64,000 bases of DNA from a bacterium (GTDB lineage: Bacteria > Patescibacteriota > Dojkabacteria > SC72): assembly GCA_021108295.1 (NCBI GenBank), contig JAIORF010000102.1:391041-455040 (forward strand), in the 5' to 3' direction. Of this stretch, positions 7,923 through 38,560 are shown piece by piece. Numbering within the stretch: position 1 is the first letter of the stretch; each line of letters opens with the position of its first letter. The translations under genes and the position numbers were made by a program. Under the pieces are notes generated by a model, which did no database searches, was not told the DNA's origin, and worked only from the letters and a program-made list of their open reading frames with translations.

Positions 7923-7991
7923 TCTCTATTTGAAAACATCCTCTATTTAGAATATAATGACTTATTACCATGGAGGGACTACCAAAGAGCT

Positions 7992-8522
7992 TTATCTCGA
8001 GGGAACGCCCTCCTTTTTCTTCTCTACTTTTCTACGAGCAAACTCTATATTTACAATATATTTTAAAAACCTCTTAAGTAGTGTACTATAGCTATGATTA
8101 GGAACAATAATCTTATAAAGTTTATCCACTCTTAGAAGATACTCTATTAAAGAATAGAAATCCCCATCACCAGAAGCAATTATACACTTATCATAATTCT
8201 CTACCTCCAGCATAACACTAATCACTAACTCTACATCAACATTCCCCTTCACAACATATACACCATTCCTCTTATACCTAACCGTCGGCTTAAAAACTAA
8301 TTCATAACCAGAACCCCTAAGGTATTTATACAATTTCTCATTTGATTTTATATACCCAAGAAAAAGATAAGCCTTTTTAACATTATATTTATCCTTAAGA
8401 TATACCCTAAATCTCCCAAAATCCAACTCCCAACCAAGAGATCTAACCCCAAGATTAAGATTCTGACTATCAATAAAAGCATATACAACACTAGAGTGTC
8501 TATCCATAACAATATCATACAC
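7992..8522 (-). CDS. NYN/LabA-like (PIN-like) domain protein, putative RNase
   Basis: 176 aa. FIDSQNL...GNVDVELVISVM...ASGDGDF matches the conserved acidic residues of NYN/LabA domains. Confidence 0.6.
   Translation of the reverse strand: MYDIVMDRHSSVVYAFIDSQNLNLGVRSLGWELDFGRFRVYLKDKYNVKKAYLFLGYIKSNEKLYKYLRGSGYELVFKPTVRYKRNGVYVVKGNVDVELVISVMLEVENYDKCIIASGDGDFYSLIEYLLRVDKLYKIIVPNHSYSTLLKRFLKYIVNIEFARRKVEKKKEGVPSR
7999..8022 (+). terminator. Putative rho-independent terminator after elp3 (GAGGG-AACG-CCCTC + T-tract), overlapping the last codons of the convergent NYN gene
   Basis: A 5-bp GC-rich stem with a 4-nt loop, followed by CTTTTTCTTC on the + strand, about 75 nt downstream of the elp3 stop. 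Confidence 0.35.
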
Positions 8523-8555
8523 ACCAACTATGAATTTCTGATGAACAAATGGAAT

Positions 8556-8631
8556 ATGGTGGGTGTACAGGGACTCGAACCCTGAACCTAACGATTAAGA
8601 GTCGTTTGCTCTACCAGTTGAGCTATACACC
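8556..8631 (-). tRNA. tRNA-Lys (anticodon CUU), CCA encoded
   Basis: Reverse complement GGGTGTATAGCTCAACTGGTAGAGCAAACGACTCTTAATCGTTAGGTTCAGGGTTCGAGTCCCTGTACACCCACCA folds as a 76-nt cloverleaf: 7-bp acceptor GGGTGTA/TACACCC, anticodon loop CTCTTAA (anticodon CTT), T-loop TTCGAGT. Confidence 0.85.
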
Positions 8632-8662
8632 CAGAATGCTTGTAATCATACCAAGATAAAAT

Positions 8663-10777
8663 CTATTTTTCAACCACAATACGCTTTACAACCACATCTA
8701 AAGCAACTAATATTGCACCATCTGAGAGACTCTTTACATCCATTTCTTCAACACTTACAATCGTATACTCTGTATCCAAAACTTCAATACTGTAATTCCC
8801 CTCATCTACAACAAAACGATAACGCCCCTTACCATCAGTCACCCTCTTCCCCACTATCTTCTTATACTCAACATCTCGTAAACCAATCGCCACATTACTC
8901 AACACACCACCACCCTTCTCTCTAACAACACCATATGCAAGACCCTTCTTAAACAAAGCTTTCGTCACTAACAAGAATGAAGGAATATACAAAGCAATGA
9001 TTAAGAAGTTCAAGATATCAGGATTATTGTAATAAGCATAAAAACTAAACACTAAACCAAAGAGGAATAGAATTGGACTTAAAATCTTTATCAAAATCTT
9101 CATCCTACCACGCATCACAATCATGAACCTACCAAACCATTTGAGTTCCAAAGAATCAAGAGGGATAGAAAACTCTGGGATAATATCATTCTTTACACTA
9201 AATGTATCACCATGATAAATATCTCGTAAAGGATAATCCTCCTTACCAAAAATACTCTTAGATGGGAAACTATACATATTGGAAGACACCTCCAACCTAT
9301 ACTCTCCATCAGGCATAGCAAGATTAAAGAAACCCCTACTACCGGTAACATCCGTCCAAATTAATTTCTTCTCTAAATTGTAAACACGAACAACAGCCTG
9401 AGAGATTGGCTCCTTCGTACCACTATCATAAACATAACCAGAAAGAACACCTTTCTTTCTTAAACCTAACCATGACAACAAACCAAGAAACAATTCAAAC
9501 AGATATATTGGAATATATATCAACCCCCCCAGAAGCGAACCTAGACCAACAGTAAATGTCGCAACTGTAACTGCAGTATTAATACCCTCTAACTCATCAC
9601 CCTGGAAATCACCAAACGCATTCCACAAAACCCCTTTAGTAGTATCTATAATGTCCCTTATCACCCTAACTATAAACGTAGGAACGGGAGCTGGAGGGTC
9701 TGGATCATCAGGCTCAGTTGGATCTCCTGGATCACTCCATTCAGGTATTGATAATTCAATATCACACAATGAAGTCTGGTTACCCACCGTATCAAAAGCA
9801 TCTACACAGAAAGAATACTCAGAGAAAAGATAGGCAATACCATCCTTCTCCAATTCACTAAGCTGAATGACTGTAGTATACACCGAACCATTCGCAGTAG
9901 TAGTTCCACAAGCATATTTAGACCCATCTTGTCTTACACACAAGAATTCAACACTCTCCAAAGACAGATTATCCTCCACCCTATACACTATCTCTACCTC
10001 ATACCCAGATTCCCATTCAACAGTATTGTTCTCACCAATATCACCTACAGACATCAATTCTATTACAGGCCCCTCACTATCTTGCACACTATACACCACA
10101 TTTGACCAACCACCCTGTCCACCATAGCTATTACGTGCCCTCACTCGATAAAAATACATCACCTCATTCTCTAAACTATCAAACTCAAACATAGTACCAC
10201 TCAACCAACCACTAGACTGCTTTACAATACTGAAATCACTATACCTACTTACCTCAATATTGTATTGATAATTAGAACCCAAAGAGTTCCAAAACAAACT
10301 ATTACTATTCCCTTGTGTAAACGCAGGCTCAGCCACTAAAGTCGGTACTCCCACTGGAGTAACATACAATGTAGCACAATCAATTATACTAATCGTAAGC
10401 CCACTATCTGTAATATCATTCGCACATATGGTGTAGGTACCAGGAGTAGCAGCAGACACTTCCACAGTAATTCTACCCTGAGAATTAGACGGAGTGGTTG
10501 GTTGAGTGAAATCTAAACCACTAGCTAAAAGTTCGATATAATGGTTGGGTTGTGGAGCATAACTACTATTTAGAATAGTCACAATAACTGTAGTATCCTC
10601 CATTATCTCTACAGTACTAGGAAACACTTCTACAGTAGAAAATGTGTCTTCTGAAATAGTTGCACTAATATCCACATCACCCTCAAAAGTCACATACTCA
10701 TCTGCAAAAACAAACATTGGGGAAAACAAAAGACATAATAGAAAAACATATATTTTTACAATTCTAGGCAATATCAT
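8663..10777 (-). CDS. Secreted/membrane-anchored surface protein: signal peptide, Ig/FN3-like domains, Pro/Asp linker, C-terminal [TM / CarbopepD_reg-like / TM-TM / CarbopepD_reg-like] anchor module
   Basis: 704 aa. Signal peptide MILPRIVKIYVFLLCLLFSPMFVFA. FN3-like segment (YQYNIEVSRYSDFSIV...YFYRVRARNSYG). PDDPDPPAPVPT linker. The C-terminal ~300 aa are homologous to the C-terminus of the 2013-aa protein at 42594..48635. Confidence 0.6.
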   Translation of the reverse strand: MILPRIVKIYVFLLCLLFSPMFVFADEYVTFEGDVDISATISEDTFSTVEVFPSTVEIMEDTTVIVTILNSSYAPQPNHYIELLASGLDFTQPTTPSNSQGRITVEVSAATPGTYTICANDITDSGLTISIIDCATLYVTPVGVPTLVAEPAFTQGNSNSLFWNSLGSNYQYNIEVSRYSDFSIVKQSSGWLSGTMFEFDSLENEVMYFYRVRARNSYGGQGGWSNVVYSVQDSEGPVIELMSVGDIGENNTVEWESGYEVEIVYRVEDNLSLESVEFLCVRQDGSKYACGTTTANGSVYTTVIQLSELEKDGIAYLFSEYSFCVDAFDTVGNQTSLCDIELSIPEWSDPGDPTEPDDPDPPAPVPTFIVRVIRDIIDTTKGVLWNAFGDFQGDELEGINTAVTVATFTVGLGSLLGGLIYIPIYLFELFLGLLSWLGLRKKGVLSGYVYDSGTKEPISQAVVRVYNLEKKLIWTDVTGSRGFFNLAMPDGEYRLEVSSNMYSFPSKSIFGKEDYPLRDIYHGDTFSVKNDIIPEFSIPLDSLELKWFGRFMIVMRGRMKILIKILSPILFLFGLVFSFYAYYNNPDILNFLIIALYIPSFLLVTKALFKKGLAYGVVREKGGGVLSNVAIGLRDVEYKKIVGKRVTDGKGRYRFVVDEGNYSIEVLDTEYTIVSVEEMDVKSLSDGAILVALDVVVKRIVVEK

Positions 10778-11392
10778 TTATATCTCATCTACAATTTTTT
10801 TAATATATTTATCTAAAGACTCTGTAAAAACAGAATCCCTATAAATATTACTACTCAGTTTAACACCTTTACTACTCTTTGTGTAGCAAGACTTACAAAT
10901 TAGACCAAAAATATTTGAATCAAAGAATTCTAATTTATCTTCACCACCACAAGATTCACACTTATCAAATTCCTGCAGGAAACCAAGCTCTTTTAATAAC
11001 TGTACCCTAAACTTGTTAACTCTCTCTGTATCAATATCACTAGTCATAACACTCTGAAGTAATCGAAAAACTCTCTGATTTGAATCACCCTCCACCAGAA
11101 ATTTGTTTAATATATAAAGAATCCTCTCTATATTATCTGTATTCATCCTCGGAGTGAACTCTGGCATATGAATAAGCTGAGACTCCGTAAGAATAGGCAA
11201 CCCCTTCCCCTCGTAATATGAGATATCACTTGTAGAAAGAGTCTGCATATTACCCCTATTTTTACTCTTAATCTTTCTTATACCCTTCGCTATTATCGCA
11301 AATTTACCATTATACTTTCCAAATACAGTAAGTATCTTATCCGCTTCACTAAAATTCACGGATTTAATTACAGTTACAACATCTCTACTCAT
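10778..11392 (-). CDS. recO: DNA repair protein RecO
   Basis: 204 aa. N-terminal OB-fold region (VIKSVNFSEADKILTVFGKYNGKFAIIAKG) and C-terminal CxxC...CxxC zinc finger (CESCGG...CKSCY), typical of RecO. Confidence 0.6.
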   Translation of the reverse strand: MSRDVVTVIKSVNFSEADKILTVFGKYNGKFAIIAKGIRKIKSKNRGNMQTLSTSDISYYEGKGLPILTESQLIHMPEFTPRMNTDNIERILYILNKFLVEGDSNQRVFRLLQSVMTSDIDTERVNKFRVQLLKELGFLQEFDKCESCGGEDKLEFFDSNIFGLICKSCYTKSSKGVKLSSNIYRDSVFTESLDKYIKKIVDEI

Positions 11393-12021
11393 ATTCTACC
11401 TTTTCCAGTAAATAATACCTTTGGAGTTTTAAAAAGAATCTTGAAATCCAACCATATACTCCTATTCCTTGTATACATAGCTCCTAACTCCAACCTCTGT
11501 TTAAATTTTACACTATTTCTACCAGATATTTGCCAAAGTCCAGTAATACCCGGCTTAACTGTCTGAATTAATCTAATATTCTCCTTTGCAATGGGATCAT
11601 CTCCTCTAAGAATCTTTTCAACTTCCCATTTCATATATGGACGAGGACCAACAAGGGACATATTACCCAAGATTATATTTATAACCTGTGGTATTTCATC
11701 TAAATCTGTCTTTCTTAACAACTTACCCAACCAAGTTACACGAATATCCATATTAAGTGGAATCTTATTATTGTTATCCAGTATTACCTGTAACCCAGAA
11801 TTCTCTTTCAATATTTCTTCATTATTAATCTTCATCGTCCTAAATTTGTACATAAAGAAAGGTTTGAAGTGAGAAATACGCTTACTATCCGAAACAAAGA
11901 CAGGGCCTTTGCTAGAAAGTATGATTAGGATGGAAATCAGAAACATCAAAGGAGAAAAAACTATCCAAAGTATTACTGCAATAGAGATGTCTAAAAGACG
12001 TTTACTTGTTCTGTATAACAT
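11389..12021 (-). CDS. Small (PglC/WbaP C-terminal-type) initiating phosphoglycosyl transferase, bacterial sugar transferase family
   Basis: 210 aa. Single N-terminal TM helix. KRLLDISIAV start. Conserved motifs GPRP and KPGITGLWQISGRN of the Bac_transf family. Confidence 0.75.
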   Translation of the reverse strand: MLYRTSKRLLDISIAVILWIVFSPLMFLISILIILSSKGPVFVSDSKRISHFKPFFMYKFRTMKINNEEILKENSGLQVILDNNNKIPLNMDIRVTWLGKLLRKTDLDEIPQVINIILGNMSLVGPRPYMKWEVEKILRGDDPIAKENIRLIQTVKPGITGLWQISGRNSVKFKQRLELGAMYTRNRSIWLDFKILFKTPKVLFTGKGRI

Positions 12022-13198
12022 CTTCTATGTAATTTTTAAGTTTATACATAAATATTGAGGCAGTAAACTCTTGAGCATGGTTAATACAATTCCTACTATC
12101 GTATTCTTCTTCTTTGAAATTCTTTAATATTTTCGCTAACTCTTCTACCTTATACTTCCTAAAGAAAATACCAGTCTTGGGGTTACTTGATGATATTGTT
12201 TCAACTACCCCACCACTTCTGTAAGCAATCACTGCACTACCTGCAGCATTAGCTTCCACAGGGACTATACCAAAGTCTTCGCCCCTTACTGGAAATATTA
12301 AGGCTTTGCATCTTTGCATCATCTTTGCTTTCTTCGTATCTGAGATAAAACCCAAGAATTTTACTAAACCCTTAGCATTTAACTCTTTTACCAAATCCTT
12401 CATCCTTTGTTCATCGTCACCCTTACCTATGATCTTAAGAGGAACCTTAGCTTCTATACAAGCCCTAATTGCAAGTTCTACACCTTTATATGTTTCAATA
12501 CGACCTACATACAAAAACCAATGTTCTTTCTTATTCATAATTCTCTCTGGTCGCATATCCTCAACCTCAACAGGAGGATACATGACATCTGCATTTACAT
12601 CATAATATTTCTTAATACGTCTTTTGACAACCTTGGAGTTAGCGATCATATGGTCTACTCTTTGAGCAGCTTTAATATCCCAACTTTTCCAAATATCCTC
12701 AAGAAAGGTGTCCATAAAGAAGGAATAGAAATTAAATAACATCTTGTTAACCCCCTCTAACTGATCTTCTTTCTTTAGACTCCTATCATTCTTCTGCCAA
12801 AGAAACTTAGGAGGAGACATACAGTAGTTTACATGCTTCTTACCTCTTGGTGCTTTAGCAAATTTCGCAAAAGCTATTGAGAGAGAAAGTACTCCATCAA
12901 AATTCCTTAAGTTCAAACTTTTGAATGCTAACGGTTGTAAAAGAAGATAGAGGTATTTCAACCTATCCTTCCATGGTAGGTACTGCATAAAAGAGGAATG
13001 TATTTTTACATTAGGGAAATACTTCTTAACAAACTCTTTGTCGTAGTAAGGTACAAACAGTTCTGCATTAGGAAATGTTTGTAAGATATATTTTAAGTGC
13101 TTCTCTGCTCCACCTCGTTTATAGAGTGGGTCGAATACAACAGCAAGTTTTAAATCCGATTGGGGTAGTTCTTGTTTCAAAGATTTCTCTTTATGCAT
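12002..13198 (-). CDS. Glycosyltransferase family 4 (GT-B, retaining)
   Basis: 398 aa. C-terminal GT4 signature EDFGIVPVEANAAGSAVIAYRSGG (E-x7-E motif). Confidence 0.7.
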   Translation of the reverse strand: MHKEKSLKQELPQSDLKLAVVFDPLYKRGGAEKHLKYILQTFPNAELFVPYYDKEFVKKYFPNVKIHSSFMQYLPWKDRLKYLYLLLQPLAFKSLNLRNFDGVLSLSIAFAKFAKAPRGKKHVNYCMSPPKFLWQKNDRSLKKEDQLEGVNKMLFNFYSFFMDTFLEDIWKSWDIKAAQRVDHMIANSKVVKRRIKKYYDVNADVMYPPVEVEDMRPERIMNKKEHWFLYVGRIETYKGVELAIRACIEAKVPLKIIGKGDDEQRMKDLVKELNAKGLVKFLGFISDTKKAKMMQRCKALIFPVRGEDFGIVPVEANAAGSAVIAYRSGGVVETISSSNPKTGIFFRKYKVEELAKILKNFKEEEYDSRNCINHAQEFTASIFMYKLKNYIEDVIQNK

Positions 13199-14327
13199 TA
13201 ATTTGTTTAAGATATTGATTTATGTTCTCCAAGAATATACTTTCACTAAATTCTCTTGCCCTATCTATTATCTTGGCTCTATTATACCTCTTTTTATCAA
13301 AATCCTTAAGTAGGGAAGTTAATTCATCATTTGTTGAGAAAAACTTACCACATATATTATCACGTACAGTTTCAGTAACCCCTCCCTCATTGTAAGCTAA
13401 TATTGGTGTACCCTGTGCCATAGCTTCGACAGGAATTAGACCGAAGTCTTCTATACCACAGAAGAGTAGTACTTTAGCTTGCTTGTAGAGCATCCTTACC
13501 TCTCTATCACTATCTAAGAAGCCATTAAAGTAAATATTCCCGTGTCCTTTTGCTAATTTCTTAAGATATTTGTAATCAGGACCGTTACCTACAATTACTA
13601 AATTATCTCCAGTTTCTATACAAGACCTTATTGCCCTATCTACTCGTTTGTAGTCATAGAGTCTGGATACAACCAATACAAAGTCTTTAGGTACCTGATA
13701 TCTCAACAACACCTCATCTATCTCTTCTTGTTCGAATTCCTCGAAATATTGATTAGCAATTCCTGGATAGATTACTTTAGATTTAACACCATATCTTTTC
13801 TTAATCTTTTTTGCTATGAAGTGGGAGTTTGCTATCCAGTAGTCTACTCTTGGTACAAGACTGATATCCCAAAGTCTAAGGTAGTTATTCAAAACAACAG
13901 AAATGAGTTTGTAAATATTTTTAAATCTGCTTGCTCGTACATTCAATTCATAATCCCAAAGAGCTCTAGGTGGTGTCATGACCATAGCTATATGGGTTTG
14001 CCCTATGTTAGGGATTATACCTTTAGCTGGTCCTGCGGATATACTTATTACAGTATCGTACTTTCTTAGGTCAAATCCTTCATACACTATTGGATTTAAT
14101 ACCTTAAAATGTTTAGAGAATTTATACTTAAATGGGAGTTTTTGGACAACACTAGTATATATCTTGTGTTTAATTTTTACATTTGTGTATCCTTTTGGAT
14201 TAAAAAGGACTGTATAGACATGGGCGTTGGGTAGTAATTTAAGCAAAGAGAACATTTCTCTATCTGCACCACCAAAGGCAGTCATTTGATCTGCAATTAC
14301 AGCAACATTACCAAGATTTAGATTCAT
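13191..14327 (-). CDS. Glycosyltransferase family 4
   Basis: 378 aa. EDFGLIPVEAMAQGTPILAYNEGGVTE GT4 motif. Confidence 0.7.
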   Translation of the reverse strand: MNLNLGNVAVIADQMTAFGGADREMFSLLKLLPNAHVYTVLFNPKGYTNVKIKHKIYTSVVQKLPFKYKFSKHFKVLNPIVYEGFDLRKYDTVISISAGPAKGIIPNIGQTHIAMVMTPPRALWDYELNVRASRFKNIYKLISVVLNNYLRLWDISLVPRVDYWIANSHFIAKKIKKRYGVKSKVIYPGIANQYFEEFEQEEIDEVLLRYQVPKDFVLVVSRLYDYKRVDRAIRSCIETGDNLVIVGNGPDYKYLKKLAKGHGNIYFNGFLDSDREVRMLYKQAKVLLFCGIEDFGLIPVEAMAQGTPILAYNEGGVTETVRDNICGKFFSTNDELTSLLKDFDKKRYNRAKIIDRAREFSESIFLENINQYLKQINA

Positions 14328-14333
14328 GAAGCA

Positions 14334-14816
14334 TTATAGCGTTGGAAGGTCGTCAGGGTCTAGGCCTAGGTCGTCAAAAGTATTCTCTTCGTCATCTTCT
14401 TTATCCAACAAACCGGAGATATCAGCGATATTCTCTGATGAAGCAGGTGCATCTGTTTCTGTATTTTCAAAAATGTCTTCTAACTCTGTAACCTCTTCGG
14501 GAGTAATGGTATCTGCATCATCGTCTGCACCATTTACAACATTATTATCATCTTCTGAGATAATGATTATATTAGGCTCTTCTTCTTCATTCTTTTCAAT
14601 CTGGGAATTAACTATACTCTCTTTTAACTGCTCTATTAATTCTTGTGCTTCACTACCAAATTTCTCAACTACATCAATAACTCTCATCTCTTTTCCGCAC
14701 TTACCACAAAACTCTACATGTTCTTTCTCGTGTCCACAGTCAGGACATGAATAGAAAATGACATGAACATTTACTCTTTGGGTAACAACACCTTTTTTAT
14801 CACTAGCTTTTGCCAT
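14334..14816 (-). CDS. Hypothetical zinc-ribbon protein with highly acidic C-terminal tail, co-transcribed downstream of secA
   Basis: 160 aa. CPDCGHEKEHVEFCGKCGKEM is a CxxC-x10-CxxC zinc ribbon. The C-terminal half is D/E-rich (DDDADTITPEEVTELEDIFEN...DDLGLDPDDLPTL). Confidence 0.4.
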   Translation of the reverse strand: MAKASDKKGVVTQRVNVHVIFYSCPDCGHEKEHVEFCGKCGKEMRVIDVVEKFGSEAQELIEQLKESIVNSQIEKNEEEEPNIIIISEDDNNVVNGADDDADTITPEEVTELEDIFENTETDAPASSENIADISGLLDKEDDEENTFDDLGLDPDDLPTL

Positions 14817-14903
14817 GTTTAACGCTATAAGATTTGAACTATATGTTAATAAAGCATAGTATACAAATCTGTATTGGTCAATAACCTTATAGTCCTAGCT
14901 ATT

Positions 14904-17807
14904 TTACTCATACTTAGGATAGCAACACTTTTTATACTTCTTACCACTACCACAAGGACAAGGTTCGTTCCTTCCTACCTTAATCCCTTTTTGTACAGTA
15001 GTTTGTTTTGCAACTTTCCCAGGTCTATTATCACTCCCCTGTATCTGTGGTCTGCTTTGTTGCATTCTTTGAGGAAGCATAGGTGCATCTCTTTTTACAA
15101 TTCGGACCTTAAAGAACCTATTCACTATACTTGTATCAATACTCCCAAGCATACTATCAAACATTTCAAATCCTTCATTCTTGTATTCTACCAATGGATC
15201 TCTTTGTGCAAGATTACGAAGAGAGATACCTTCTCTTAAATCTCCCATATTATCCAAATGCTCCATCCAGTATCTATCGAAGGATTGTAAGACAAGTAGC
15301 TTACAAAGCTCTTTTAATGGTTCCTGATCAATTACTTGGGTATGGAGTATGAATGCAACAAAGATTAATCTTTTTAATTTGGTAGAACTAGCTAAGTCTT
15401 TTTCTGAGTATTTTAGTAACTTCATAATCTTCTCATAGATTTCTTCTGTAAGAAGATTTTCTGCTTGCATTACAACCCTACTTCTTTCTTCTTCATCAAT
15501 TTCCATATCATCAGACCTCTGAGAAGCCAAGAGGAAGTCTACCTGCTCCAATTCTTTCTTAAGTAACCATATTTCAAGTGGTGTATATCCGTAAGTAAAC
15601 TCAGAGAGTATTTCAATATCCCAAGTGTGAGATTGATTAAGGTTGAATGCGTCTAATTGGTCTTGTAATTTCTCAATATTGGTATCTAGTGCAAGCTTAG
15701 TATCCGCTTTAGCTTCAAACTTTAGTTCTTTCCTATCCCATTGAGAGGTTTTTAATATGTTTGTTCGTAGTCCATAGATAATATCTCTTTGTGTATTGAG
15801 TACATCATCATATTCAACTAGGTGCTTACGGATATCGTAGTTATGGGCTTCTACTTTCTTTTGAGCATTCTCTATGGTTTTACCAAGTACACCAAGAGAT
15901 ATTGGGATATCCTCTTCTAGTCCTACTTGAGACATAATCATTTGCATCTTGTCTCCTCCGAACAGTCTCATTAGATCGTCTTCAAAGGATACATAGAATT
16001 TTGTTTTACCTGGATCCCCCTGTCTTCCTGCTCTACCTCTTAGCTGATTGTCTATTCTCCTAGATTCGTGTCTTTCAGAAGCTATTACATAGAGTCCTCC
16101 CAAGTCTACTACTCCATCTCCTAGTGCAATGTCAGTACCTCGTCCTGCCATATTTGTAGCAATTGTGACAGCTCCTTTCTGCCCTGCTTTTGAGATGATC
16201 TTAGCTTCACGTTCATGGTATTTAGCATTAAGTACTTCGTGTGGTACTCCCTCTTTAGAAAGTAGGCTAGAGAGTAGTTCTGATTTCTCAACTGACGCTG
16301 TACCTACAAGCATTGGTTGTCCTTTCTTGTGATGTTCTTTGATATCTTCTACCACTGCATTGAATTTCCCTTCGTGTGTTTTGTAAACCACATCATTTGC
16401 ATCTTCTCTGATTACCGGACTATTGGTTGGTACTACAATTGTATCTAGTCCATAGATTGATGAGAACTCTTCTGCTTCTGTAATTGCGGTTGCTGTCATG
16501 CCTGAGAAGTATGAGTAGAGTCTAAAGTAGTTCTGAAGTGTAACAGTAGCCATCGTACGAGACTCTCTTTTGACTTCTACACCCTCTTTAGCCTCAATTG
16601 CTTGATGTAAGCCTTCGCTGTATCTTCTACCGCTCATAGCTCTTCCTGTGAATTCGTCTACTATTACTATTTCTCCATCTCTTATCATATATTTGTCATC
16701 TAAGTGGTAGAGTTCTTTTGCTTTAAGTGCATTGTCTAAATGGTATGCTAATTGGGCGTTTTCATATACATTGTCTACTTTAAGAATTTTCTCTACAGCA
16801 TCTATCCCACTATCAGTAAGTGATACTGCGTGTGCTTTTTCATCTATTACATAGTGTTTCTCTGGATTAAGGCTTCTAACTAGTGTAGAGAATTGTTTGT
16901 ACATATCGTTTGAGTCTTGAGCACTGGTAGAGATGATGAGGGGGGTTCTTGCTTCATCAATGAGGATGGAGTCTGCTTCGTCTACAATGGAAAAATATCT
17001 TGGTCCTTGAACTCTGTCATCCAGATTCCTTACCATATTATCTCTTAGGTAATCAAAGCCATATTCATTGTTAGTACCGTATACCACATCGCATGCATAT
17101 GCTTCTTTCTTAGTACATTCTACTAGGTTTACACCACTCATATGATCATATTTAAGTCTTCCAAAATCTTTCTCTTTCTTTTCTCTCTCTGCTATCAATT
17201 CCTTCGCTTCATCTCCTTTGAGTTTAAGAGCTTCTTTATCTGTGATATATCGGTACTGAGCTCCTGAGTTAATTGCGGCCACACTTATACCGAGTGATCC
17301 TAGTATATGTCCATTCCATTCTGCATCTCTTTTGGCTAGGTAATCATTTACTGTAACTAGGTGTGCTCCTCTTCCAGTTAGAGCATACAGATAGAGTGGC
17401 ATATTAGCAGCTAGAGTTTTTCCTTCTCCCGTGAAGAGTTCTGCAATTTTGTTGTCAAAGAGTACATATGCTGCTGTCATCTGTACATCGAAGTGTCTAT
17501 GGTTAGCTACTCTCTTAGACGCTTCTCTTACTGTAGCGAATGCTTCTGGTAATATTTCGTAGAGTTTCTCTTTCTCTCCTTCCAAAACTATATCCAATTG
17601 TTCTTTGTCTAGGATTGTAAAATCCTCTCTGGCTTTTATTAGATCTACACCTATCTTCTTCCGAAATTCTTTCGTCTTATTCTGAAGTTGTTCGTCAGAG
17701 AGATTAGAGTATTTGTCTTCTAACTCTTTTATCTCCTCCACTATTGGTTGTATTTTTAGTAATTGTTTTTCGTTTGAGTCGAAAAACTTACTTAGAAGTT
17801 GAAGCAT
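14904..17807 (-). CDS. secA: Preprotein translocase ATPase SecA
   Basis: 967 aa. DEAD-like motor motifs (GEGKTL, DEADSILIDEARTPLIIS, TNMAGRGTDI). C-terminal zinc-binding tail CPCGSGKKYKKCC. Confidence 0.95.
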   Translation of the reverse strand: MLQLLSKFFDSNEKQLLKIQPIVEEIKELEDKYSNLSDEQLQNKTKEFRKKIGVDLIKAREDFTILDKEQLDIVLEGEKEKLYEILPEAFATVREASKRVANHRHFDVQMTAAYVLFDNKIAELFTGEGKTLAANMPLYLYALTGRGAHLVTVNDYLAKRDAEWNGHILGSLGISVAAINSGAQYRYITDKEALKLKGDEAKELIAEREKKEKDFGRLKYDHMSGVNLVECTKKEAYACDVVYGTNNEYGFDYLRDNMVRNLDDRVQGPRYFSIVDEADSILIDEARTPLIISTSAQDSNDMYKQFSTLVRSLNPEKHYVIDEKAHAVSLTDSGIDAVEKILKVDNVYENAQLAYHLDNALKAKELYHLDDKYMIRDGEIVIVDEFTGRAMSGRRYSEGLHQAIEAKEGVEVKRESRTMATVTLQNYFRLYSYFSGMTATAITEAEEFSSIYGLDTIVVPTNSPVIREDANDVVYKTHEGKFNAVVEDIKEHHKKGQPMLVGTASVEKSELLSSLLSKEGVPHEVLNAKYHEREAKIISKAGQKGAVTIATNMAGRGTDIALGDGVVDLGGLYVIASERHESRRIDNQLRGRAGRQGDPGKTKFYVSFEDDLMRLFGGDKMQMIMSQVGLEEDIPISLGVLGKTIENAQKKVEAHNYDIRKHLVEYDDVLNTQRDIIYGLRTNILKTSQWDRKELKFEAKADTKLALDTNIEKLQDQLDAFNLNQSHTWDIEILSEFTYGYTPLEIWLLKKELEQVDFLLASQRSDDMEIDEEERSRVVMQAENLLTEEIYEKIMKLLKYSEKDLASSTKLKRLIFVAFILHTQVIDQEPLKELCKLLVLQSFDRYWMEHLDNMGDLREGISLRNLAQRDPLVEYKNEGFEMFDSMLGSIDTSIVNRFFKVRIVKRDAPMLPQRMQQSRPQIQGSDNRPGKVAKQTTVQKGIKVGRNEPCPCGSGKKYKKCCYPKYE

Positions 17808-19438: not shown

Positions 19439-19999
19439 ATGCATCTAGAGCAGTTAATTCTTTCCTTACTTTTCTTTTTGGTTAAAGTAGATGTTTTAAA
19501 AACAGAGAGGTATAGGTTGGATATTAGGCCTGTAGCTCCTGTGTATTGGGTTAGCAATGAGGATATATTGGTGAATGAGGGGGAGAGAGGTTATCTATAC
19601 AGTGTTGTAGAGAGAGAGGTGGTAGAAGAGTTTGAGAAAGAGGGGAATCAGATATTGGGATATTGTGATATGGATGTACTGATATGTGAATGGGAGAACA
19701 GGGAGATGGAGTCACCAGAGGAGTATTCTACACATTTAATACAGGAGGGTAGTGATGGTGAGAGGGTTGTAGATATTGAGCTAAAGCCTACAGTAGAGGT
19801 AGTAGAGTGTAAAGAAAAGATTATTCTTAGAACAGTAGCTCCTGTAGAGGAGAAGTTGTTTGAGTTTAGTGATGATTTGTATGAGGTAGAGGATTATCAA
19901 GAGGACATGTTTTCTCCAAACTTTAGGAAACTACTATCTAAAGATGATTTGGGGAGTTACTGGATTACAGAGTTTGGGTTTAATCTACACGCTTTCTAA
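19439..19999 (+). CDS. Hypothetical acidic protein downstream of M23 peptidase
   Basis: 186-aa ORF with an N-terminal hydrophobic segment and a Glu-rich body. No recognisable motif. Confidence 0.3.
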   Translation: MHLEQLILSLLFFLVKVDVLKTERYRLDIRPVAPVYWVSNEDILVNEGERGYLYSVVEREVVEEFEKEGNQILGYCDMDVLICEWENREMESPEEYSTHLIQEGSDGERVVDIELKPTVEVVECKEKIILRTVAPVEEKLFEFSDDLYEVEDYQEDMFSPNFRKLLSKDDLGSYWITEFGFNLHAF

Positions 20000-21157
20000 A
20001 ACCTTTATTGTTTCTTTTACTGTTTTCTCCCAAGAGAATAGTTTTACTCTGTCTAAACCTTCTTTTATTAAAGATTTTCTTAAGTCTTCATTCGTGTATA
20101 TATCAAACATGGCCTTACCAACTTCCTCCATATTTAAACCATCTACTAATATTCCTGCTCCTCCTAGTACTTCTGGGTAACAGGATCCATTATGAGCAAT
20201 GACTGGAGTTCCTGCTTTCATACCTCCAACAAGAATAATACCAAAGCCTTCATACAAGGAAAGATGTAGCATAGCGATAGAGTTAGATAGGAGTTGCTTT
20301 ACTTGATTGTCTTCGTAAAAGCCTGTGAGTATTATATGTTCCTCAAGCCCTTTGTTCTTTATATATTCTCTAAACTCCCTTGCAGAAGGATTGTCTTTAA
20401 CAAAATTCCCTCCAGCAATTATCATATATGGTACATTCTCTTTAGATGGTATTCTACTTAGGAAATCTTTATATCCATCCACTACTCCTTTAGAGTTTTT
20501 ATTTTCGTATACAGTACCTCCTATGTATATGTAATATCCTTTTTCTTTATAGTCTGGTGGTAACTTTTCATCCCATTGTGCGTCAGTTCCTTCTAACACG
20601 GCGTCTAAGTATATTGTTTTAACTTCTTCTTTGTTGTATTTAGGGAAATATTTAAGGAAATCCTTTTTAGTTTGATTGCTGTTGACCACTATATATTTAC
20701 AGTATTTAGCTTTTCTGAGTTCTAACCAGTAGAGGATCTTTTTTATAGAGTTGTTGATTTTGTTTTTTTCAGAATAGATATTAAAAAGAGGGAGAATCAT
20801 ATCGTGGATCATTAGTACTGTTGGGATATGTAGTGATGGTATTCCAGCCCAGAAGTATGGACAGAAGTATATGGAGTTTTTTTGTTTTATTTTTAGTATG
20901 TTTGGTAAGAGTTGTATTAGATACCAGAGGTAGTTTTTATAGTCTGATTTTCTTAGTTTTCCTATTCGAATAATTTCTACGTTTTCTCTTTCTTTTTCTA
21001 ATGTTTTGTCTAATGTACTTTGAGCATCAAAAAGGAGGATTGATATCTTTATATCTTTGTAATTAAGGAGTTCTTTAACAACATTCTTTGTATATTTACC
21101 AATACCGTGGTGTTTAAGTTCGTTTTGAGTTGTGGTACAGTCAATTATTAGGTGCAT
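19985..21157 (-). CDS. Glycosyltransferase family 4
   Basis: 390 aa. EGFGIILVGGMKAGTPVIAHNGSCYPEVLGGAG GT4 C-terminal motif. Confidence 0.65.
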   Translation of the reverse strand: MHLIIDCTTTQNELKHHGIGKYTKNVVKELLNYKDIKISILLFDAQSTLDKTLEKERENVEIIRIGKLRKSDYKNYLWYLIQLLPNILKIKQKNSIYFCPYFWAGIPSLHIPTVLMIHDMILPLFNIYSEKNKINNSIKKILYWLELRKAKYCKYIVVNSNQTKKDFLKYFPKYNKEEVKTIYLDAVLEGTDAQWDEKLPPDYKEKGYYIYIGGTVYENKNSKGVVDGYKDFLSRIPSKENVPYMIIAGGNFVKDNPSAREFREYIKNKGLEEHIILTGFYEDNQVKQLLSNSIAMLHLSLYEGFGIILVGGMKAGTPVIAHNGSCYPEVLGGAGILVDGLNMEEVGKAMFDIYTNEDLRKSLIKEGLDRVKLFSWEKTVKETIKVLESV

Positions 21158-21207
21158 TGTTTAGTAATCTCTATTTTATTAAACCATTTTACCACAGTCT
21201 ACATTTA

Positions 21208-23055
21208 CTAGTTGGCGTACTTAAATAGATGTATCGTCTTATGCTTCATATCAATCCTCTCCTCTAGATCCAAAACTGTACTATCCAACAATTCTTGCAG
21301 TCTGTCTTCATTTAGCAAAAGATCTTCCTCTTTTCCTTCATGTAAGGAAATATATACCAGTTCACTAACTCCAGTTTTTGCTAACATGTTCTCAAAATTC
21401 TCGAGGCCCCCTATTCTGAAATTGTATGTTTCAATATCGATATCCTGAACTAACAATTCTTTCTTAGGAATCCACTCTTTCAACTTCCACCTCCACTCAG
21501 GGTCTTGTACGTTTTCAGATCTTAAAACAAATGGGAGTCTATCCCAACCAATATTATTAATCCAGATGACCTCATCCTCGTCAACTAAAGATAGTATTTC
21601 TTCACATTCTCGATTATAACCATAAAGCAAATATGATTCTATTTGTCCATGCTTATATGACGCTAATAACGCTGTGCCTACCATAAAAATCGAGAGACTT
21701 ATTTCAATAATATATTTTATAACTCCTTTCTCGATATAATACATCATCAAGAAACCTACAATTATAAACAAACTAAAGACAACCTTAATCCAAACATAGC
21801 TATATTCAAAATACATACCCCCTATTACAAAAACGATTGTAACAAGAATCGTATTCCGGACAAAAATCTCCTTCTGTTTTATATTCTTTAAAAACAACAA
21901 GAAATATACAATTATAATTGGGGTTATTGGAATAAGATATCTACCAATTGAAGAATGAAATATGTAAATTAAAAGATAGGTAAACAAAAGAATAGGTAAA
22001 AACATTCTTTCGATATTTTTCTCTTTAAAGTACGATTTAAATGACTTCGTTAGATATGATAAAGATGGAACTAGCATTAGAAAAGGAATCGAGAAAAAAG
22101 AAAACGTCCTCGGATAAAAGATCTTTCCAATATATTGCAAAACTATATTAATTGATACATATAAATACCCTAGAAAAGGACTAACATTCTCTGGGATATT
22201 AATTAAAAACATTGCTCTTGCTACACCTACATTAGTGGCAATATCTCTATTGTACGTAGCCAGTTCAAGTCCAAAATTGCGAGTTAATTCTCTAGTACCA
22301 CGCTCTATCAAACCTAATATGTTTGCATTATAAATATTTAAAGGAATAATAGACGTTGTAAACATTAAGACTAAATATACTAGAGCAGGTAAGAATAGTT
22401 GGATACAACTTAGAACAGTACTCTCAAGAATCTTCTTCCAGTTACCTTTGTACATCATTAAAGATTCTATTATCACCCATATCACAAGAGCTGGGCCAAA
22501 AGTATAAAATACATGTTCTTTAGAATCTAATAATAGCAAAAGGAATACACCAGTCCACCATTTACTCTTTTTACTTAATATCGAATTAAAAATCAGTAGG
22601 ACGAAGAACAGAGCTTGGATGTCTCTGTAGAAGGTTGGCATATAAGTGACAAACTGATAACTGGAAAACAATAATGTGACACCAAGAAGAGAATATATCT
22701 GAGAGAGTTTAAAATGTCCATTTAATATCCTATAGAATACAATCCCACTTCCAATACCAAATAAAATATTGATAAGAGTTGCTATAAATACAGATGGCCC
22801 GGAAAATATAAAGATCACACCAACTAGTAGTTTACTTAAGAACCCATGTAGACCTACTCCATAGTTCCCAATCCATTGACCGTTTTTTAATAAATCTGCA
22901 ATAACAGCACTTTCTCCTAGATAAATGTTTTCATCTAATCGAACATCTCTAAAGAGGGATAAGATTATAAAGAAAACAAACCATAAGACAAAAAATACAA
23001 TAGGTAGATATTTACTACATAGGAATGATTTATAGATATTTTTAAATTTCGACAT
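21208..23055 (-). CDS. Polytopic membrane protein, GT-C fold (ArnT/PMT-like) glycosyltransferase candidate; paralog of 30935..32881
   Basis: 615 aa. >10 TM helices. First-loop motif LDENIYLGE (the DE-x-x-aromatic motif typical of GT-C enzymes). NYGVGLHGF...GPSVFIATL block is shared with the paralog. Confidence 0.5.
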   Translation of the reverse strand: MSKFKNIYKSFLCSKYLPIVFFVLWFVFFIILSLFRDVRLDENIYLGESAVIADLLKNGQWIGNYGVGLHGFLSKLLVGVIFIFSGPSVFIATLINILFGIGSGIVFYRILNGHFKLSQIYSLLGVTLLFSSYQFVTYMPTFYRDIQALFFVLLIFNSILSKKSKWWTGVFLLLLLDSKEHVFYTFGPALVIWVIIESLMMYKGNWKKILESTVLSCIQLFLPALVYLVLMFTTSIIPLNIYNANILGLIERGTRELTRNFGLELATYNRDIATNVGVARAMFLINIPENVSPFLGYLYVSINIVLQYIGKIFYPRTFSFFSIPFLMLVPSLSYLTKSFKSYFKEKNIERMFLPILLFTYLLIYIFHSSIGRYLIPITPIIIVYFLLFLKNIKQKEIFVRNTILVTIVFVIGGMYFEYSYVWIKVVFSLFIIVGFLMMYYIEKGVIKYIIEISLSIFMVGTALLASYKHGQIESYLLYGYNRECEEILSLVDEDEVIWINNIGWDRLPFVLRSENVQDPEWRWKLKEWIPKKELLVQDIDIETYNFRIGGLENFENMLAKTGVSELVYISLHEGKEEDLLLNEDRLQELLDSTVLDLEERIDMKHKTIHLFKYAN

Positions 23056-23084
23056 GATATATAACCTTATTTATTAGACCATCC

Positions 23085-24368
23085 TCAACTTGAGCCTTTG
23101 GAGAGTCTTAAGGAAGTTAAATATATAACTAAATAACATAATGTTGTAAGCAAAGACCAAATCATTAAAGTCATTTTCAAATTATGAGTATAATAGCCCA
23201 CTATGAAAGAAATTACTACAACAAAGAACTTAAGCCCTTGAAAAAATATGTTCATATTCTGCTTATTAACAATATATACAACATAGCTAACAGGGGTAAC
23301 AACAAATCTTGCAAAAAACATTATACAAAAGATTTGAATATATTGCCCTACAAGTACCCATTCATCACCCAACAAAAACGGTATTGTAGAAGGGACTAAC
23401 AGAAAAATAAGAAGGAAAGGAATAATCCCTAACAGAAAAAGGCTTTGAGATGTTTTTATAAAAATTTCCGAACAAGAACCTTTTTCCCGATATTGTTCCG
23501 AAGCCTCTTGTTTAAACACATCCCCTACAGAAGACGTCACAAACCATAATGGGGAACCCAAGATTTTATCTGACATTGCAAGATAACCCGCATTACTATT
23601 TCCAAAAACCATATTCATACCAATGTTTGGAAACATCTCTGCTAATCTACTTAATAGATCCGCAAGTAAAGAAAACTTTGGGAATTTAACATATCTCAAC
23701 AAGATTTTCTTGAACTTTATGCTTCTCATTATACCTTTAAATTTGATTTTAAGAGCCAAGAGAAGCAAGAAATATGCAACTATATAACCTATTAAAAACG
23801 AAACCATTAACCCTGATTCTGTAAATCCACTATATCCACCAAATAAACGGATAGTTATCAAGATAATCGCTTGGATAACAACATTCCTAGCAATTATCTT
23901 ATACTTTTTATTCCTTAAGGCATAATAGTAAATTGCTTCGTATAACGCCACAAACAAAACACTTAATCCTATCAATATTTTATATTCATTTAGCAAAGGG
24001 ACATTAAACAGAGAAAATATATACTCTCCTTTAAAAACAATAACCATAGTAAATATCAAAGACACAAGGAAACTACATACACTTGATATTATAACCAACT
24101 CTCGAGCTTCCGTATCCTTTTTTGGCAAAAGAATAGCTAAACAATATCTCCCATTTGATACCATTGAGAAAATAGTTACAATTGTAATGTATACACCAAA
24201 TATCCCAAAATCATTAGGTGAATAACATCTCGTTAGTAGTGGTGTTACTAATATTGGCAATAATTGAGCTATTATTCGTCCACTACCTAATACTAAAACA
24301 TTCCGTTTATATCGACTGTTTGTGAAATATTTCTTTAAAAAGACTTTTACTTCTTGAGACTTTCTCAT
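23085..24368 (-). CDS. Wzx-like polysaccharide/oligosaccharide flippase (MOP superfamily); paralog of 28346..29635
   Basis: 427 aa, ~12 TM helices. The N-terminus is alignable with the 429-aa paralog. Typical polysaccharide-biosynthesis-protein architecture. Confidence 0.6.
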   Translation of the reverse strand: MRKSQEVKVFLKKYFTNSRYKRNVLVLGSGRIIAQLLPILVTPLLTRCYSPNDFGIFGVYITIVTIFSMVSNGRYCLAILLPKKDTEARELVIISSVCSFLVSLIFTMVIVFKGEYIFSLFNVPLLNEYKILIGLSVLFVALYEAIYYYALRNKKYKIIARNVVIQAIILITIRLFGGYSGFTESGLMVSFLIGYIVAYFLLLLALKIKFKGIMRSIKFKKILLRYVKFPKFSLLADLLSRLAEMFPNIGMNMVFGNSNAGYLAMSDKILGSPLWFVTSSVGDVFKQEASEQYREKGSCSEIFIKTSQSLFLLGIIPFLLIFLLVPSTIPFLLGDEWVLVGQYIQIFCIMFFARFVVTPVSYVVYIVNKQNMNIFFQGLKFFVVVISFIVGYYTHNLKMTLMIWSLLTTLCYLVIYLTSLRLSKGSS

Positions 24369-24404
24369 ATACCCTCACTGTTAAAATTGTATACTCTAAA
24401 TATC

Positions 24405-25577
24405 TCAAAAAAGTTGTTCATATATTTCAAAAGTATCTTTAGCTATCTTGTCCCAACCGAATTCTTTAACATATCTTAAAATTTCTTTTATATCCCATTT
24501 TCTATTTAATGCCTCAAATATCTTCTCCGCCAAATCTTCAGGATCGGCAATATTACATAATAGACCATACTCATCAGACCTAATCACTTCAAGGCTACCA
24601 GAATTCTTAGTTGCTACAACGGGTTTTCCACAAGCAAATGCTTCTAATTGAACTATGCCGAAACTCTCTGACAAACTGGGTAGAACAAATAAATCACATG
24701 CGTTCATCCAAATCGGAACATCCTTGTGGAATCTCGCTCCAAGAAATTCAATATTATCAGACAATCCTAACTTTTTCGTTTCAGCTTCTAGCACATCCCT
24801 TTGAGTCCCATCTCCAATTAAAAAAAGTTTTAAATTTCCCATAGAATATTTATCTCTTAGAACTTTCATTGCCCGTACAAGATGAATATGTCCTTTGTAT
24901 TTCTCCAAATAACCTACAGTAAGCAACACCTTTTGTTTCTGCCCAATCTTTAATTCCTTACGAGCTTCAAACAAACTTTTAGGAATAAATAGACCACTAT
25001 TAAAGCCGTTTGACAAGAACATTACATTTTCATTATATTTTTTAAGATCTTTAATTGACTCTTTATTAACTCTTATTATCTGATCGGCATTCTCCCATGT
25101 ATAACTGATTTTTTTATTTGTATTACTCATTTCCTCTTCTAAGTAATGCTTGTCTTCGTGAACTGTTAAAACAAAGGGTTTGTTATACTTTTCTTTCAAC
25201 TTCGCACCAACATATCCTGCAGTCCATGTAAAATGACTATGTATTATATCGAATTTGATTTTTTCTTTTCTAATAATTTTATCAACAACTTTGAAATGCC
25301 AATCTCCAAGTACTCTATAAAAAATACTCATTGGTAAATACCACAATGGAACTAGGAAAATATGTACATTACTAGGCTTATCAAACTCTTGTACTACAAA
25401 TTCTTTTCTATGTTTAAGTAGTTGTTTTATTGGAATGATGTTGTAAATCTCTGCAAATGGTTTATATCTTACAAACACATAAACGTTTTCAAAGTTCTCA
25501 GCCATAGATTCAACAAAATCTTTTTGAAACGAATGATACGAATGCAATAAAAAGACTATGTTTTTCTTTTTCTCCAT
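24405..25577 (-). CDS. Glycosyltransferase family 4
   Basis: 390 aa. SLSESFGIVQLEAFACGKPVVATKNSGSLEVI GT4 motif. Confidence 0.7.
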   Translation of the reverse strand: MEKKKNIVFLLHSYHSFQKDFVESMAENFENVYVFVRYKPFAEIYNIIPIKQLLKHRKEFVVQEFDKPSNVHIFLVPLWYLPMSIFYRVLGDWHFKVVDKIIRKEKIKFDIIHSHFTWTAGYVGAKLKEKYNKPFVLTVHEDKHYLEEEMSNTNKKISYTWENADQIIRVNKESIKDLKKYNENVMFLSNGFNSGLFIPKSLFEARKELKIGQKQKVLLTVGYLEKYKGHIHLVRAMKVLRDKYSMGNLKLFLIGDGTQRDVLEAETKKLGLSDNIEFLGARFHKDVPIWMNACDLFVLPSLSESFGIVQLEAFACGKPVVATKNSGSLEVIRSDEYGLLCNIADPEDLAEKIFEALNRKWDIKEILRYVKEFGWDKIAKDTFEIYEQLF

Positions 25578-25636
25578 TTCATTAGTAATTAATAATTTAT
25601 ATTGTTAACTATATAAAAGATATTTGTCTTTGGATA

Positions 25637-26695: not shown

Positions 26696-26696
26696 A

Positions 26697-27818: not shown

Positions 27819-27822
27819 AAGC

Positions 27823-32881: not shown

Positions 32882-32901
32882 TGGAAGGGTTCGTGAAGAT
32901 A

Positions 32902-33996: not shown

Positions 33997-34022
33997 TCCT
34001 GTTATTATATCAATTTACAAAA

Positions 34023-36080: not shown

Positions 36081-36089
36081 TAGTAACTA

Positions 36090-37418: not shown

Positions 37419-37435
37419 ATATTTAAATATTTAAC

Positions 37436-38542: not shown

Positions 38543-38560
38543 ATTTGTCTAAATAATAAA

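Follow-up and report, generated by a model that had tools for sequence, protein, structure and literature searches.

Genes A and B and their shared C-terminus

The window analysed is a 64-kb stretch (positions 391,041 to 455,040) of contig JAIORF010000102.1, GenBank assembly GCA_021108295.1, from a member of the Dojkabacteria in the Patescibacteria, or candidate phyla radiation (CPR). Its G+C content is 34.7%, and its genes are those of a reduced CPR genome, including genes for SecA, RecO, SufBCD, an Elp3-like radical SAM protein and many glycosyltransferases, and one tRNA gene. Two open reading frames (ORFs), genes A and B, encode large predicted surface proteins that share a C-terminal region of about 300 residues, here called the module, which is the subject of this analysis. 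How CPR bacteria, most of which are uncultured, fix large surface proteins to the cell and hold their hosts is largely unknown.

In Pfam searches, the N-terminal part of protein A gave sub-threshold matches to Big_1 and fn3, and protein B matched Laminin_G_3 (111.5 bits, two stretches) as well as DUF5581, Big_7 and CarboxypepD_reg. No NCBIfam model matched A or B at E≤1. In a pairwise BLASTP alignment of 286 columns (E=2e-43), residues 422-698 of A and 1740-2013 of B are 35% identical, with 57% positives, and the alignment is collinear through the helices, the linkers and both beta-sandwiches of the module. All remaining segment pairs had E≥0.3; because no further pair falls below this value, A and B are considered unrelated outside the module. 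A tblastn search of the window in six frames with either module detected only these two copies. The initial annotation had proposed homologous, collinear C-termini in these two proteins, and the alignment bears this out. The coordinates it gave are right to within a few residues, and all of the motifs that it quoted (LRKKG/FRRKKAE, G[YF]VYDS.TKEPI, TGS.G.F and KGRYRFV) are present. The positions of the features are listed in Table 1.

Table 1. Features of genes A and B, their modules and their surroundings. Positions are those of the window unless a locus is named. H1-H4, hydrophobic helices; S1 and S2, beta-sandwiches; AF2, AlphaFold2; GT4, glycosyltransferase family 4; aa, amino acids.
Feature	Residues	Position	Strand	Description or basis
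Gene A		8663..10777	minus	ORF, 704 aa: signal peptide, Big_1-like/fn3 ectodomain, acidic Pro-rich linker, C-terminal module
A signal peptide	1-~25	10703..10777	minus	N-terminal hydrophobic stretch in residues 1-27
A ectodomain	1-395	9593..10777	minus	K+R 3.6%, D+E 15.3%, typical of exported regions in the family
A module with juxtamembrane lead-in		~8666..9592	minus	
A first hydrophobic stretch, H1-Pro423-H2	397-439	9461..9589	minus	Hydropathy, AF2, family profile columns 21-60
A basic triplet RKK	440-442	9452..9460	minus	Family profile
A S1	~444-542	9152..9448	minus	CarboxypepD_reg core and family-specific extension of ~45 residues
A basic juxtamembrane helix and H3-H4 transmembrane hairpin	547-608	8954..9139	minus	Hydropathy segments 558-583 and 586-610; AF2
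A S2, lysine-rich	~616-699	8681..8932	minus	Second PF13620 stretch; AF2 strands; K+R 15.9%
Gene B		42594..48635	minus	ORF, 2013 aa: signal peptide/anchor, Cys-rich N-terminus, two (Ig-like + Laminin_G_3) repeats, large unannotated region, Cys-rich segment, C-terminal module
B module with juxtamembrane lead-in		~42597..43505	minus	
B first hydrophobic stretch with Pro1741	1715-1755	43371..43493	minus	Hydropathy, AF2
B basic patch RRKK	1756-1759	43359..43370	minus	Sequence; aligns with RKK of A
B S1	~1763-1861	43053..43349	minus	PF13620 at 1765-1824; AF2 strands 53-150
B H3-H4 transmembrane hairpin	~1866-1928	42852..43040	minus	Hydropathy segments 1869-1902 and 1903-1928; AF2 helices 155-192 and 196-222
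B S2	~1933-2013	42597..42839	minus	CarbopepD_reg_2/PF13620 at 1934-1986; AF2 strands 224-302
tRNA-Lys (CTT)		8557..8632	minus	30 bp downstream of gene A
SecA - 160-aa ORF - GT4 - GT4 - Bac_transf - RecO run		10778..17807	minus	Kept in loci L003-L065
Surface-glycan gene run		19985..42505	minus	~23 kb, co-directional, with B as its first gene
393-aa protein		48781..49962	plus	Divergent from B
DsbA/thioredoxin-like protein		50551..51300	minus	~2 kb from B
Homologue of the 393-aa protein and P0182		6747..7949 and 8001..8933 of locus L066		Adjacent pair

Recurrence of the module and the proteins that carry it

A word-index protein search yielded nine relatives of module A and none of module B, or ten when a diverse alignment was used, and because so few relatives were found it says little on taxonomic breadth. 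The diverse family alignment contained no stretch conserved enough for a pattern scan. A profile built from A, B and the nine relatives was used to search 1.84 billion representative proteins exhaustively with HMMER, which returned 1659 proteins at E≤1e-30 and 11233 at E≤1e-3, the latter including tandem-repeat proteins that lack the module. The best 150 matches were re-scanned together with the nine relatives, A and B, and a protein was assigned to the family when it had a single full-length match to the 325-position profile ending at the protein C-terminus. This gave 130 proteins (128 from the database plus A and B, which cover profile positions 4-308 and 8-308, respectively), each with one copy of the module. 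In all of them the module lies at the extreme C-terminus, with a median tail of 2 residues and a longest tail of 32, and the proteins range in length from 268 to 4258 aa. The remaining top matches were tandem-repeat proteins with CarboxypepD_reg domains and no module.

CarboxypepD_reg domains are very common, as the 11233 matches illustrate, and two proteins that each combine such domains with hydrophobic helices might resemble one another by chance. The probability of this is negligible. The single collinear alignment of A and B and the 130 matches to the whole profile, each in one C-terminal stretch, led to the rejection of chance or generic resemblance.

The N-terminal regions of the module proteins fall into 19 similarity groups, three of which are large, namely a 45-member group of proteins of 500-2600 aa, the A type of about 700 aa, and the B type. 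Pfam domains found across the groups include DUF2341 with fn3, cadherin-like domains, InlB-type B-repeats, FG-GAP, Laminin_G_3 and Big_1, and an N-terminal hydrophobic stretch is present in 80 of the 95 module proteins that start with Met. As judged from these sequence features, the family appears to consist of exported, adhesin-like proteins with a common C-terminal end. The expectation that the module would recur on other giant proteins was confirmed, the profile search having placed it at the C-terminus of many large, otherwise unrelated, predicted exported proteins from a lineage without an outer membrane.

Structure of the module

PF13620 (CarboxypepD_reg; gathering cutoff 32.3 bits) was matched in two stretches of each protein, with 57.8 bits for A and 63.8 bits for B, and it was also matched in nine further family members that were scanned. 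As suggested initially, the soluble units S1 and S2 are CarboxypepD_reg/transthyretin-like beta-sandwiches. They have the seven-stranded fold, and the domain type is seen both in the Pfam scores and in structural matches. In S2 of A, residues 626-674 additionally matched SdrD_B slightly under its cutoff (27.9 versus 29.7 bits), and structural similarity to SdrD_B/CnaB domains was observed.

The AlphaFold2 model of module A has a mean predicted local distance difference test (pLDDT) score of 78 and a predicted template modelling (pTM) score of 0.66. In module numbering, it comprises helices 2-24 and 27-41, a sandwich at 49-147, helices 152-189 and 193-213, and a second sandwich at 221-304. The model of module B is weaker (pLDDT 68); its elements come in the same order, but residues 7-42, the first hydrophobic region, form a single continuous helix. 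The best 19-residue windows of H3 and H4 in A have estimated insertion energies of about -0.1 and -0.7 kcal/mol.

The family profile, drawn from 129 sequences, starts with an acidic lead-in, followed by a hydrophobic stretch of about 40 residues with a conserved Pro in the middle and by a basic triplet, in which K or R accounts for ~80% of residues in each of the three consecutive columns. S1 then has the motifs G[YF]VYDS.TKEPI ... TD..G.F and the extension FPS ... D.P..NVY.G ... IP.DP, which in A reads FPS ... DYP..IYHG ... SIPLD. Next come a basic amphipathic segment and two strongly hydrophobic helices, with a short loop that contains Pro between them. A basic linker then leads into S2, with the motif YG.V.D..G ... 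KRVTD..G.YRF, and the protein ends after S2. The best-conserved columns lie in the soluble domains (VYDS.TKEPI, FPS, NVY.G, IP.DP and RVTD..G.YRF) and in the basic triplet. The similarity thus extends beyond the generic hydrophobicity of transmembrane segments, a point on which the initial annotation had staked its claim. Conservation ahead of H1 is weak.

When the first half of the module was compared with the second half using hhalign, the two matched with 98% probability (E=2.3e-13) over 100 gapless columns. In each half, these columns take in the helix that precedes the sandwich, the basic linker, a YG dipeptide and the sandwich itself. The module therefore goes back to an ancient internal duplication of a unit made of one or more membrane helices, a basic linker and a sandwich.

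Membrane topology

Because two membrane helices, H3 and H4, separate S1 from S2, both sandwiches are on one side of the membrane, and which side this is follows from the number of crossings, one or two, made by the first hydrophobic stretch. If the initial proposal of one beta-sandwich on each side referred to the sides of the membrane, it is contradicted by the intervening helical hairpin, and flank charges and composition place the pair in the cytoplasm. Three independent lines of evidence, namely flank charges, composition and helix count, make a three-pass form with both sandwiches cytoplasmic the likely arrangement. The alternative is a four-pass anchor in which H1-H2 and H3-H4 are both hairpins and the ectodomain, S1 and S2 are all extracellular. 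In that case the sandwiches would be a pedestal close to the membrane, and anionic lipids or wall polymers might bind to their lysine-rich surfaces. This form is a possibility to be taken seriously, though a doubtful one.

In the 129 sequences, the mean net charge is -1.2 before H1, -0.15 in the H1-H2 turn, +3.2 after H2, +2.3 before H3, +0.2 in the H3-H4 loop and +1.9 after H4. This positive-inside pattern fits an N-out/S1-in/S2-in topology at every flank and is the opposite of what a four-pass, all-outside anchor needs, as the three strongly positive flanks would then be outside and the two turns with a charge near zero would be cytoplasmic.

Composition points the same way. The ectodomains of the family contain 2.7% K and 4.9% K+R, as compared with 10.3% K and 14.7% K+R in 14 cytoplasmic proteins of the window, 10.6% K and 16.9% K+R in S2, and 10.6% K+R in S1. 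The short tails after S2 are likewise K/E-rich, so that S2 and the tails resemble cytoplasmic proteins and differ from the K-poor ectodomains of the same polypeptides, which is difficult to reconcile with four passes. A per-residue log-odds score that separates cytoplasmic from ectodomain sequence with 97% accuracy on each side classed 99% of S2 and 64% of S1 sequences as cytoplasm-like. Because the tandem-repeat CarboxypepD_reg proteins, which are presumed to be extracellular, mostly have only 1-5% K+R, the lysine richness is not dictated by the fold. The lysine depletion of exported regions (K 1-3%, K+R 3.6-4.9%; including 9593..10777 and 43506..48635 in the window) is in itself strong enough to serve as a predictor of localisation in the Dojkabacteria lineage.

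As to helix count, a distant standalone homologue of 310 aa, P0182, has a single N-terminal transmembrane helix of 22 residues in place of the H1-Pro-H2 stretch, and the continuous first helix in the AlphaFold2 model of B also favours one crossing. The stretch in A is thus taken, by inference, to cross the membrane once. The single first hydrophobic helix of the initial annotation stands as a hydrophobic region, but it has to be redrawn as a stretch of about 40 residues with a conserved Pro that is modelled as two helices in A and as one in B.

Several observations weigh against a single crossing and cytoplasmic sandwiches. A hydrophobic stretch of this length with a central Pro can form a hairpin, polar residues stand ahead of the Pro, and AlphaFold2 breaks the helix at this Pro in A. 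In the alignment of the two helix-plus-sandwich halves that reveals the internal duplication, the H3-H4 hairpin is paired with part of the H1-H2 region. The hydrophobicity of H1 and of H2 is only marginal, their best 19-residue windows having estimated insertion energies of +2.7 and +5.8 kcal/mol, and the pLDDT of H1 is low (50-57 in A and 33-67 in B). H2, with ~17 residues and a small/polar stripe typical of helix packing, counts against one crossing and also against the four-pass form. The composition of S1 is only intermediate. To our knowledge, all well-studied CarboxypepD_reg, CnaB and SdrD-B domains are extracytoplasmic, a placement that agrees with the four-pass form and with the role as stalk domains of the structural matches, and a cytoplasmic pair would be unusual.

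Comparison with known anchoring and sorting systems

No model of the whole module was found in Pfam or NCBIfam, and no structure in the PDB matched the whole arrangement by sequence or by fold (best TM-score to the query 0.25, with single domains only). A literature search found no paper on the module. The soluble domain type is already known, and the arrangement of membrane helices with two sandwiches has no named model, as the initial annotation had supposed.

The known examples of CarboxypepD_reg/transthyretin-like domains include the transthyretin-like domain of carboxypeptidase D, the N-terminal extension of SusC/TonB receptors and the NOMO repeats. These are soluble, extracytoplasmic and often in tandem, whereas the module has exactly two copies that alternate with membrane helices at the C-terminus, are lysine-rich and probably cytoplasmic, and include a family-specific extension of ~45 residues in S1. 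In SlaB, the S-layer anchor of Sulfolobus, and in NOMO of the BOS complex, the sandwiches are non-cytoplasmic and precede a single helix, and none alternates with helices.

The LPXTG/sortase anchors of monoderm bacteria are similar in that a C-terminal element, in which a hydrophobic segment is followed by a basic cluster, is found on many unrelated surface proteins. However, the module exceeds such signals tenfold in length, includes three predicted passes and two folded domains, and shows no sign of cleavage or covalent attachment to the wall. No LPXTG-type motif (LP.[TSA][GANS]) is present in A or B, no NCBIfam LPXTG model matched them, and no sortase was found among the window ORFs scanned. 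The LPXTG layout of one hydrophobic segment and a short basic tail is also not seen, as ~260 residues with two domains and two more helices follow the basic cluster. PEP-CTERM/exosortase, PGF-CTERM/archaeosortase and GlyGly-CTERM/rhombosortase systems likewise use lineage-restricted C-terminal tags, each genome having many copies on diverse exported proteins, and their signature motif, transmembrane segment and basic cluster lie within about 35 C-terminal residues. The module differs from these in having no signature motif, no NCBIfam match and no gene for a partner enzyme beside gene A or gene B. The PEP motif is absent from both proteins, and the sole PGF (B1818) lies inside S1, away from the anchor. 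The C-terminal domain of the type IX secretion system (T9SS) is also a beta-sandwich tag, but it lacks membrane helices and depends on an outer membrane, whereas the module has strongly hydrophobic helices and occurs in Patescibacteria. The corresponding Por_Secre_tail models of NCBIfam and Pfam did not match A or B.

These comparisons bear on the possibility that the module is a cleavable sorting signal, removed by a sortase-, exosortase- or rhombosortase-like enzyme so that the ectodomain is transferred to the wall or released. Its strictly C-terminal position and the hydrophobic stretch with a conserved RKK cluster recall tripartite sorting signals. Beyond the missing motifs, models and adjoining enzyme genes, however, conservation before H1 is weak, and ~260 well-conserved residues with two folded domains that follow the basic cluster are hard to explain if they are discarded. 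This explanation is therefore very improbable. The export-sorting role that was also suggested initially is unlikely, since the signal peptides at the N-termini of these proteins are ordinary ones, the module is the last part to be synthesised and there is no short cleavage-type motif.

The module may instead be set beside mycoplasma P1/Gli-type adhesins and eukaryotic integrins, which share with the module proteins a large variable ectodomain, a C-terminal passage through the membrane and a conserved intracellular part, and FG-GAP domains are among the cargo of the module family. These proteins have one helix and a short unstructured tail in place of three passes and two folded sandwiches, and the likeness is by analogy only, with no sequence relationship. 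By function, the module belongs among the C-terminal anchoring or sorting elements of a single lineage (LPXTG, PEP-CTERM, PGF-CTERM and the T9SS C-terminal domain), though it lacks the defining features of each. By architecture, if the sandwiches are inside, it would be closer to the adhesins with a transmembrane anchor and an intracellular part.

Proposed role of the module

On balance, the two C-termini are probably copies of one membrane-anchor module of the Dojkabacteria, ~300 residues long, with three passes and a cytoplasmic pair of sandwiches. An ordinary signal peptide would send the variable N-terminal part out via Sec, and the H1-Pro-H2 stretch followed by RKK would stop transfer, giving a single membrane crossing. 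S1 would then fold in the cytoplasm, H3-H4 would insert as a hairpin with both ends inside, and S2 would fold in the cytoplasm, leaving both lysine-rich sandwiches at the inner face. At its simplest, the module would permanently anchor adhesin-like proteins in the cytoplasmic membrane of cells that have no outer membrane. With three passes and two compact domains on the far side, such an anchor should be far harder to pull out than a single helix, and the sandwiches could act as rivet heads that resist extraction of the adhesin under load. The anchoring role and a mechanical or docking role of S1 and S2 are both inferred.

The sandwiches may also provide a conserved docking surface for an intracellular partner, and their strong conservation relative to the ectodomains suggests a conserved intracellular contact. 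In an extended form of this idea, the module would be a common transmembrane coupling unit for giant, fast-evolving adhesins and one core surface protein, with its cytoplasmic domains docked onto an intracellular structure; we regard this as unlikely. It is quite improbable that binding or pulling at the ectodomain is signalled via the three helices to the sandwiches, which would engage a cytoskeletal, secretion or regulatory partner by analogy with integrins or mycoplasma adhesins, a reading that extends the preferred one. S1 and S2 are indeed the best-conserved part of otherwise fast-diverging proteins, some of the cargo is integrin-like (FG-GAP), and the evidence from flank charges and composition applies equally. 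However, the module has no enzymatic or known signalling domain. Furthermore, a conserved cytoplasmic neighbour gene of the module genes was sought and none was found, leaving no partner candidate, which also tells against a docking role within the three-pass interpretation; the only recurring neighbour, seen twice, encodes an exported beta-helix membrane protein.

The role of the module, which is built from a common domain, is most likely simple anchoring. The finding is bioinformatic and confined to one lineage. The module nevertheless offers a hidden Markov model with which to list the surface-protein repertoire of a whole CPR class, poses a defined and testable problem of membrane topology, and would widen the range of settings known for a very common domain family. 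The conserved intracellular surface of the sandwiches, if they are cytoplasmic, could be used as bait for partners. If the coupling interpretation were true, the module would be a bacterial counterpart of integrin-cytoskeleton coupling that links host attachment to the inside of an ultrasmall episymbiont, and the first example of a cytoplasmic function for CarboxypepD_reg domains.

Distribution and gene neighbourhood

Genomes and metagenomes were scanned for the motif D[YF]P[LI]x[ND][VI]YHG, which is specific to the A type, and these scans over-sample the A subfamily and say little on the B type. With one genome per GTDB species, 63 loci were found, almost all in metagenome-assembled genomes named Candidatus Dojkabacteria or WS6; some were auto-labelled ‘uncultured Saccharibacteria’ and one Microgenomates. 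The A-type gene was present at sixty more metagenome loci, and no copy of the module was detected in the viral contigs scanned. All homologues with an NCBI organism name are from Dojkabacteria, with products named ‘hypothetical protein’, ‘carboxypeptidase regulatory-like domain-containing protein’ or ‘tandem-95 repeat protein’. Two family members, WKZ31160.1 and WKZ31380.1, are encoded by one genome of 1.04 Mb, and two module genes were found ~20 kb apart on one contig. From its distribution in these sequences, the module appears to be characteristic of Candidatus Dojkabacteria (WS6).

Protein A is encoded by a syntenic core gene of Dojkabacteria. Among the genome loci, the A ectodomain is present at 58 and RecO at 55, and where the contig is long enough the gene order is SecA - small ORF (160 aa) - GT4 - (GT4 - Bac_transf) - RecO - A. 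Stop and start codons often overlap in the run from SecA to A, including those of recO and gene A. The pairing of a recombination gene with envelope genes is odd and is stable across Dojkabacteria species. The tRNA-Lys gene next to gene A is the sole tRNA gene of the window. Other giant module genes (≥2200 aa) lie near UDG/HI0933/Elp3 genes at four loci (L020, L051, L054 and L056).

Gene B is the first gene of the surface-glycan run (Table 1), which includes five GT4 genes, one glycosyltransferase family 2 (GT2) gene, and genes for two tandem GFO/IDH/MocA oxidoreductases, two hexapeptide acyltransferases, a DegT aminotransferase, a UDP-glucose dehydrogenase, a UDP-GlcNAc 2-epimerase, two Polysacc_synt_3 flippases and three proteins of 615-685 aa without a Pfam match. 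As A too follows GT4, GT4, Bac_transf and RecO genes, this context hints that the surface proteins A and B are linked with glycan assembly. The ectodomain of B contains 2.5% Cys, whereas the shared module is nearly free of Cys (0.13%), and a gene for a DsbA/thioredoxin-like protein lies close to the Cys-rich B.

The 393-aa protein encoded divergently from B combines a signal peptide and bactofilin-like beta-helix repeats with 4-5 membrane helices and a Lys-rich tail, and its match to the Pfam Bactofilin family (E=1.4e-4) is below threshold. A homologue (31% identity over 117 aa, E=6e-12), pre-annotated as DUF8173, is encoded directly upstream of the standalone module gene for P0182 on an unrelated 579-kb contig, where a Band_7/SPFH gene then follows. 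A neighbour with bactofilin-like repeats was thus found in two independent adjacencies and is absent from the other ~125 loci.

At locus L002, on a contig from JGI, one in-frame TGA at 7980..7982 (..DDTI*KLDPTG..) interrupts the A orthologue immediately ahead of its first membrane helix, so that a 374-aa ectodomain and a 308-aa module are called as separate genes. Frameshift-like splits were seen at L019, L028 and L065, and sequencing error, pseudogenisation or read-through could account for such splits. The start of P0150 (WKZ31380.1, 4258 aa, a ‘tandem-95 repeat protein’) resembles a response-regulator receiver domain (..LKIVIIDDDFVVRQVLG..DIIILDTTLP..), which may reflect a gene fusion or a mis-called start.

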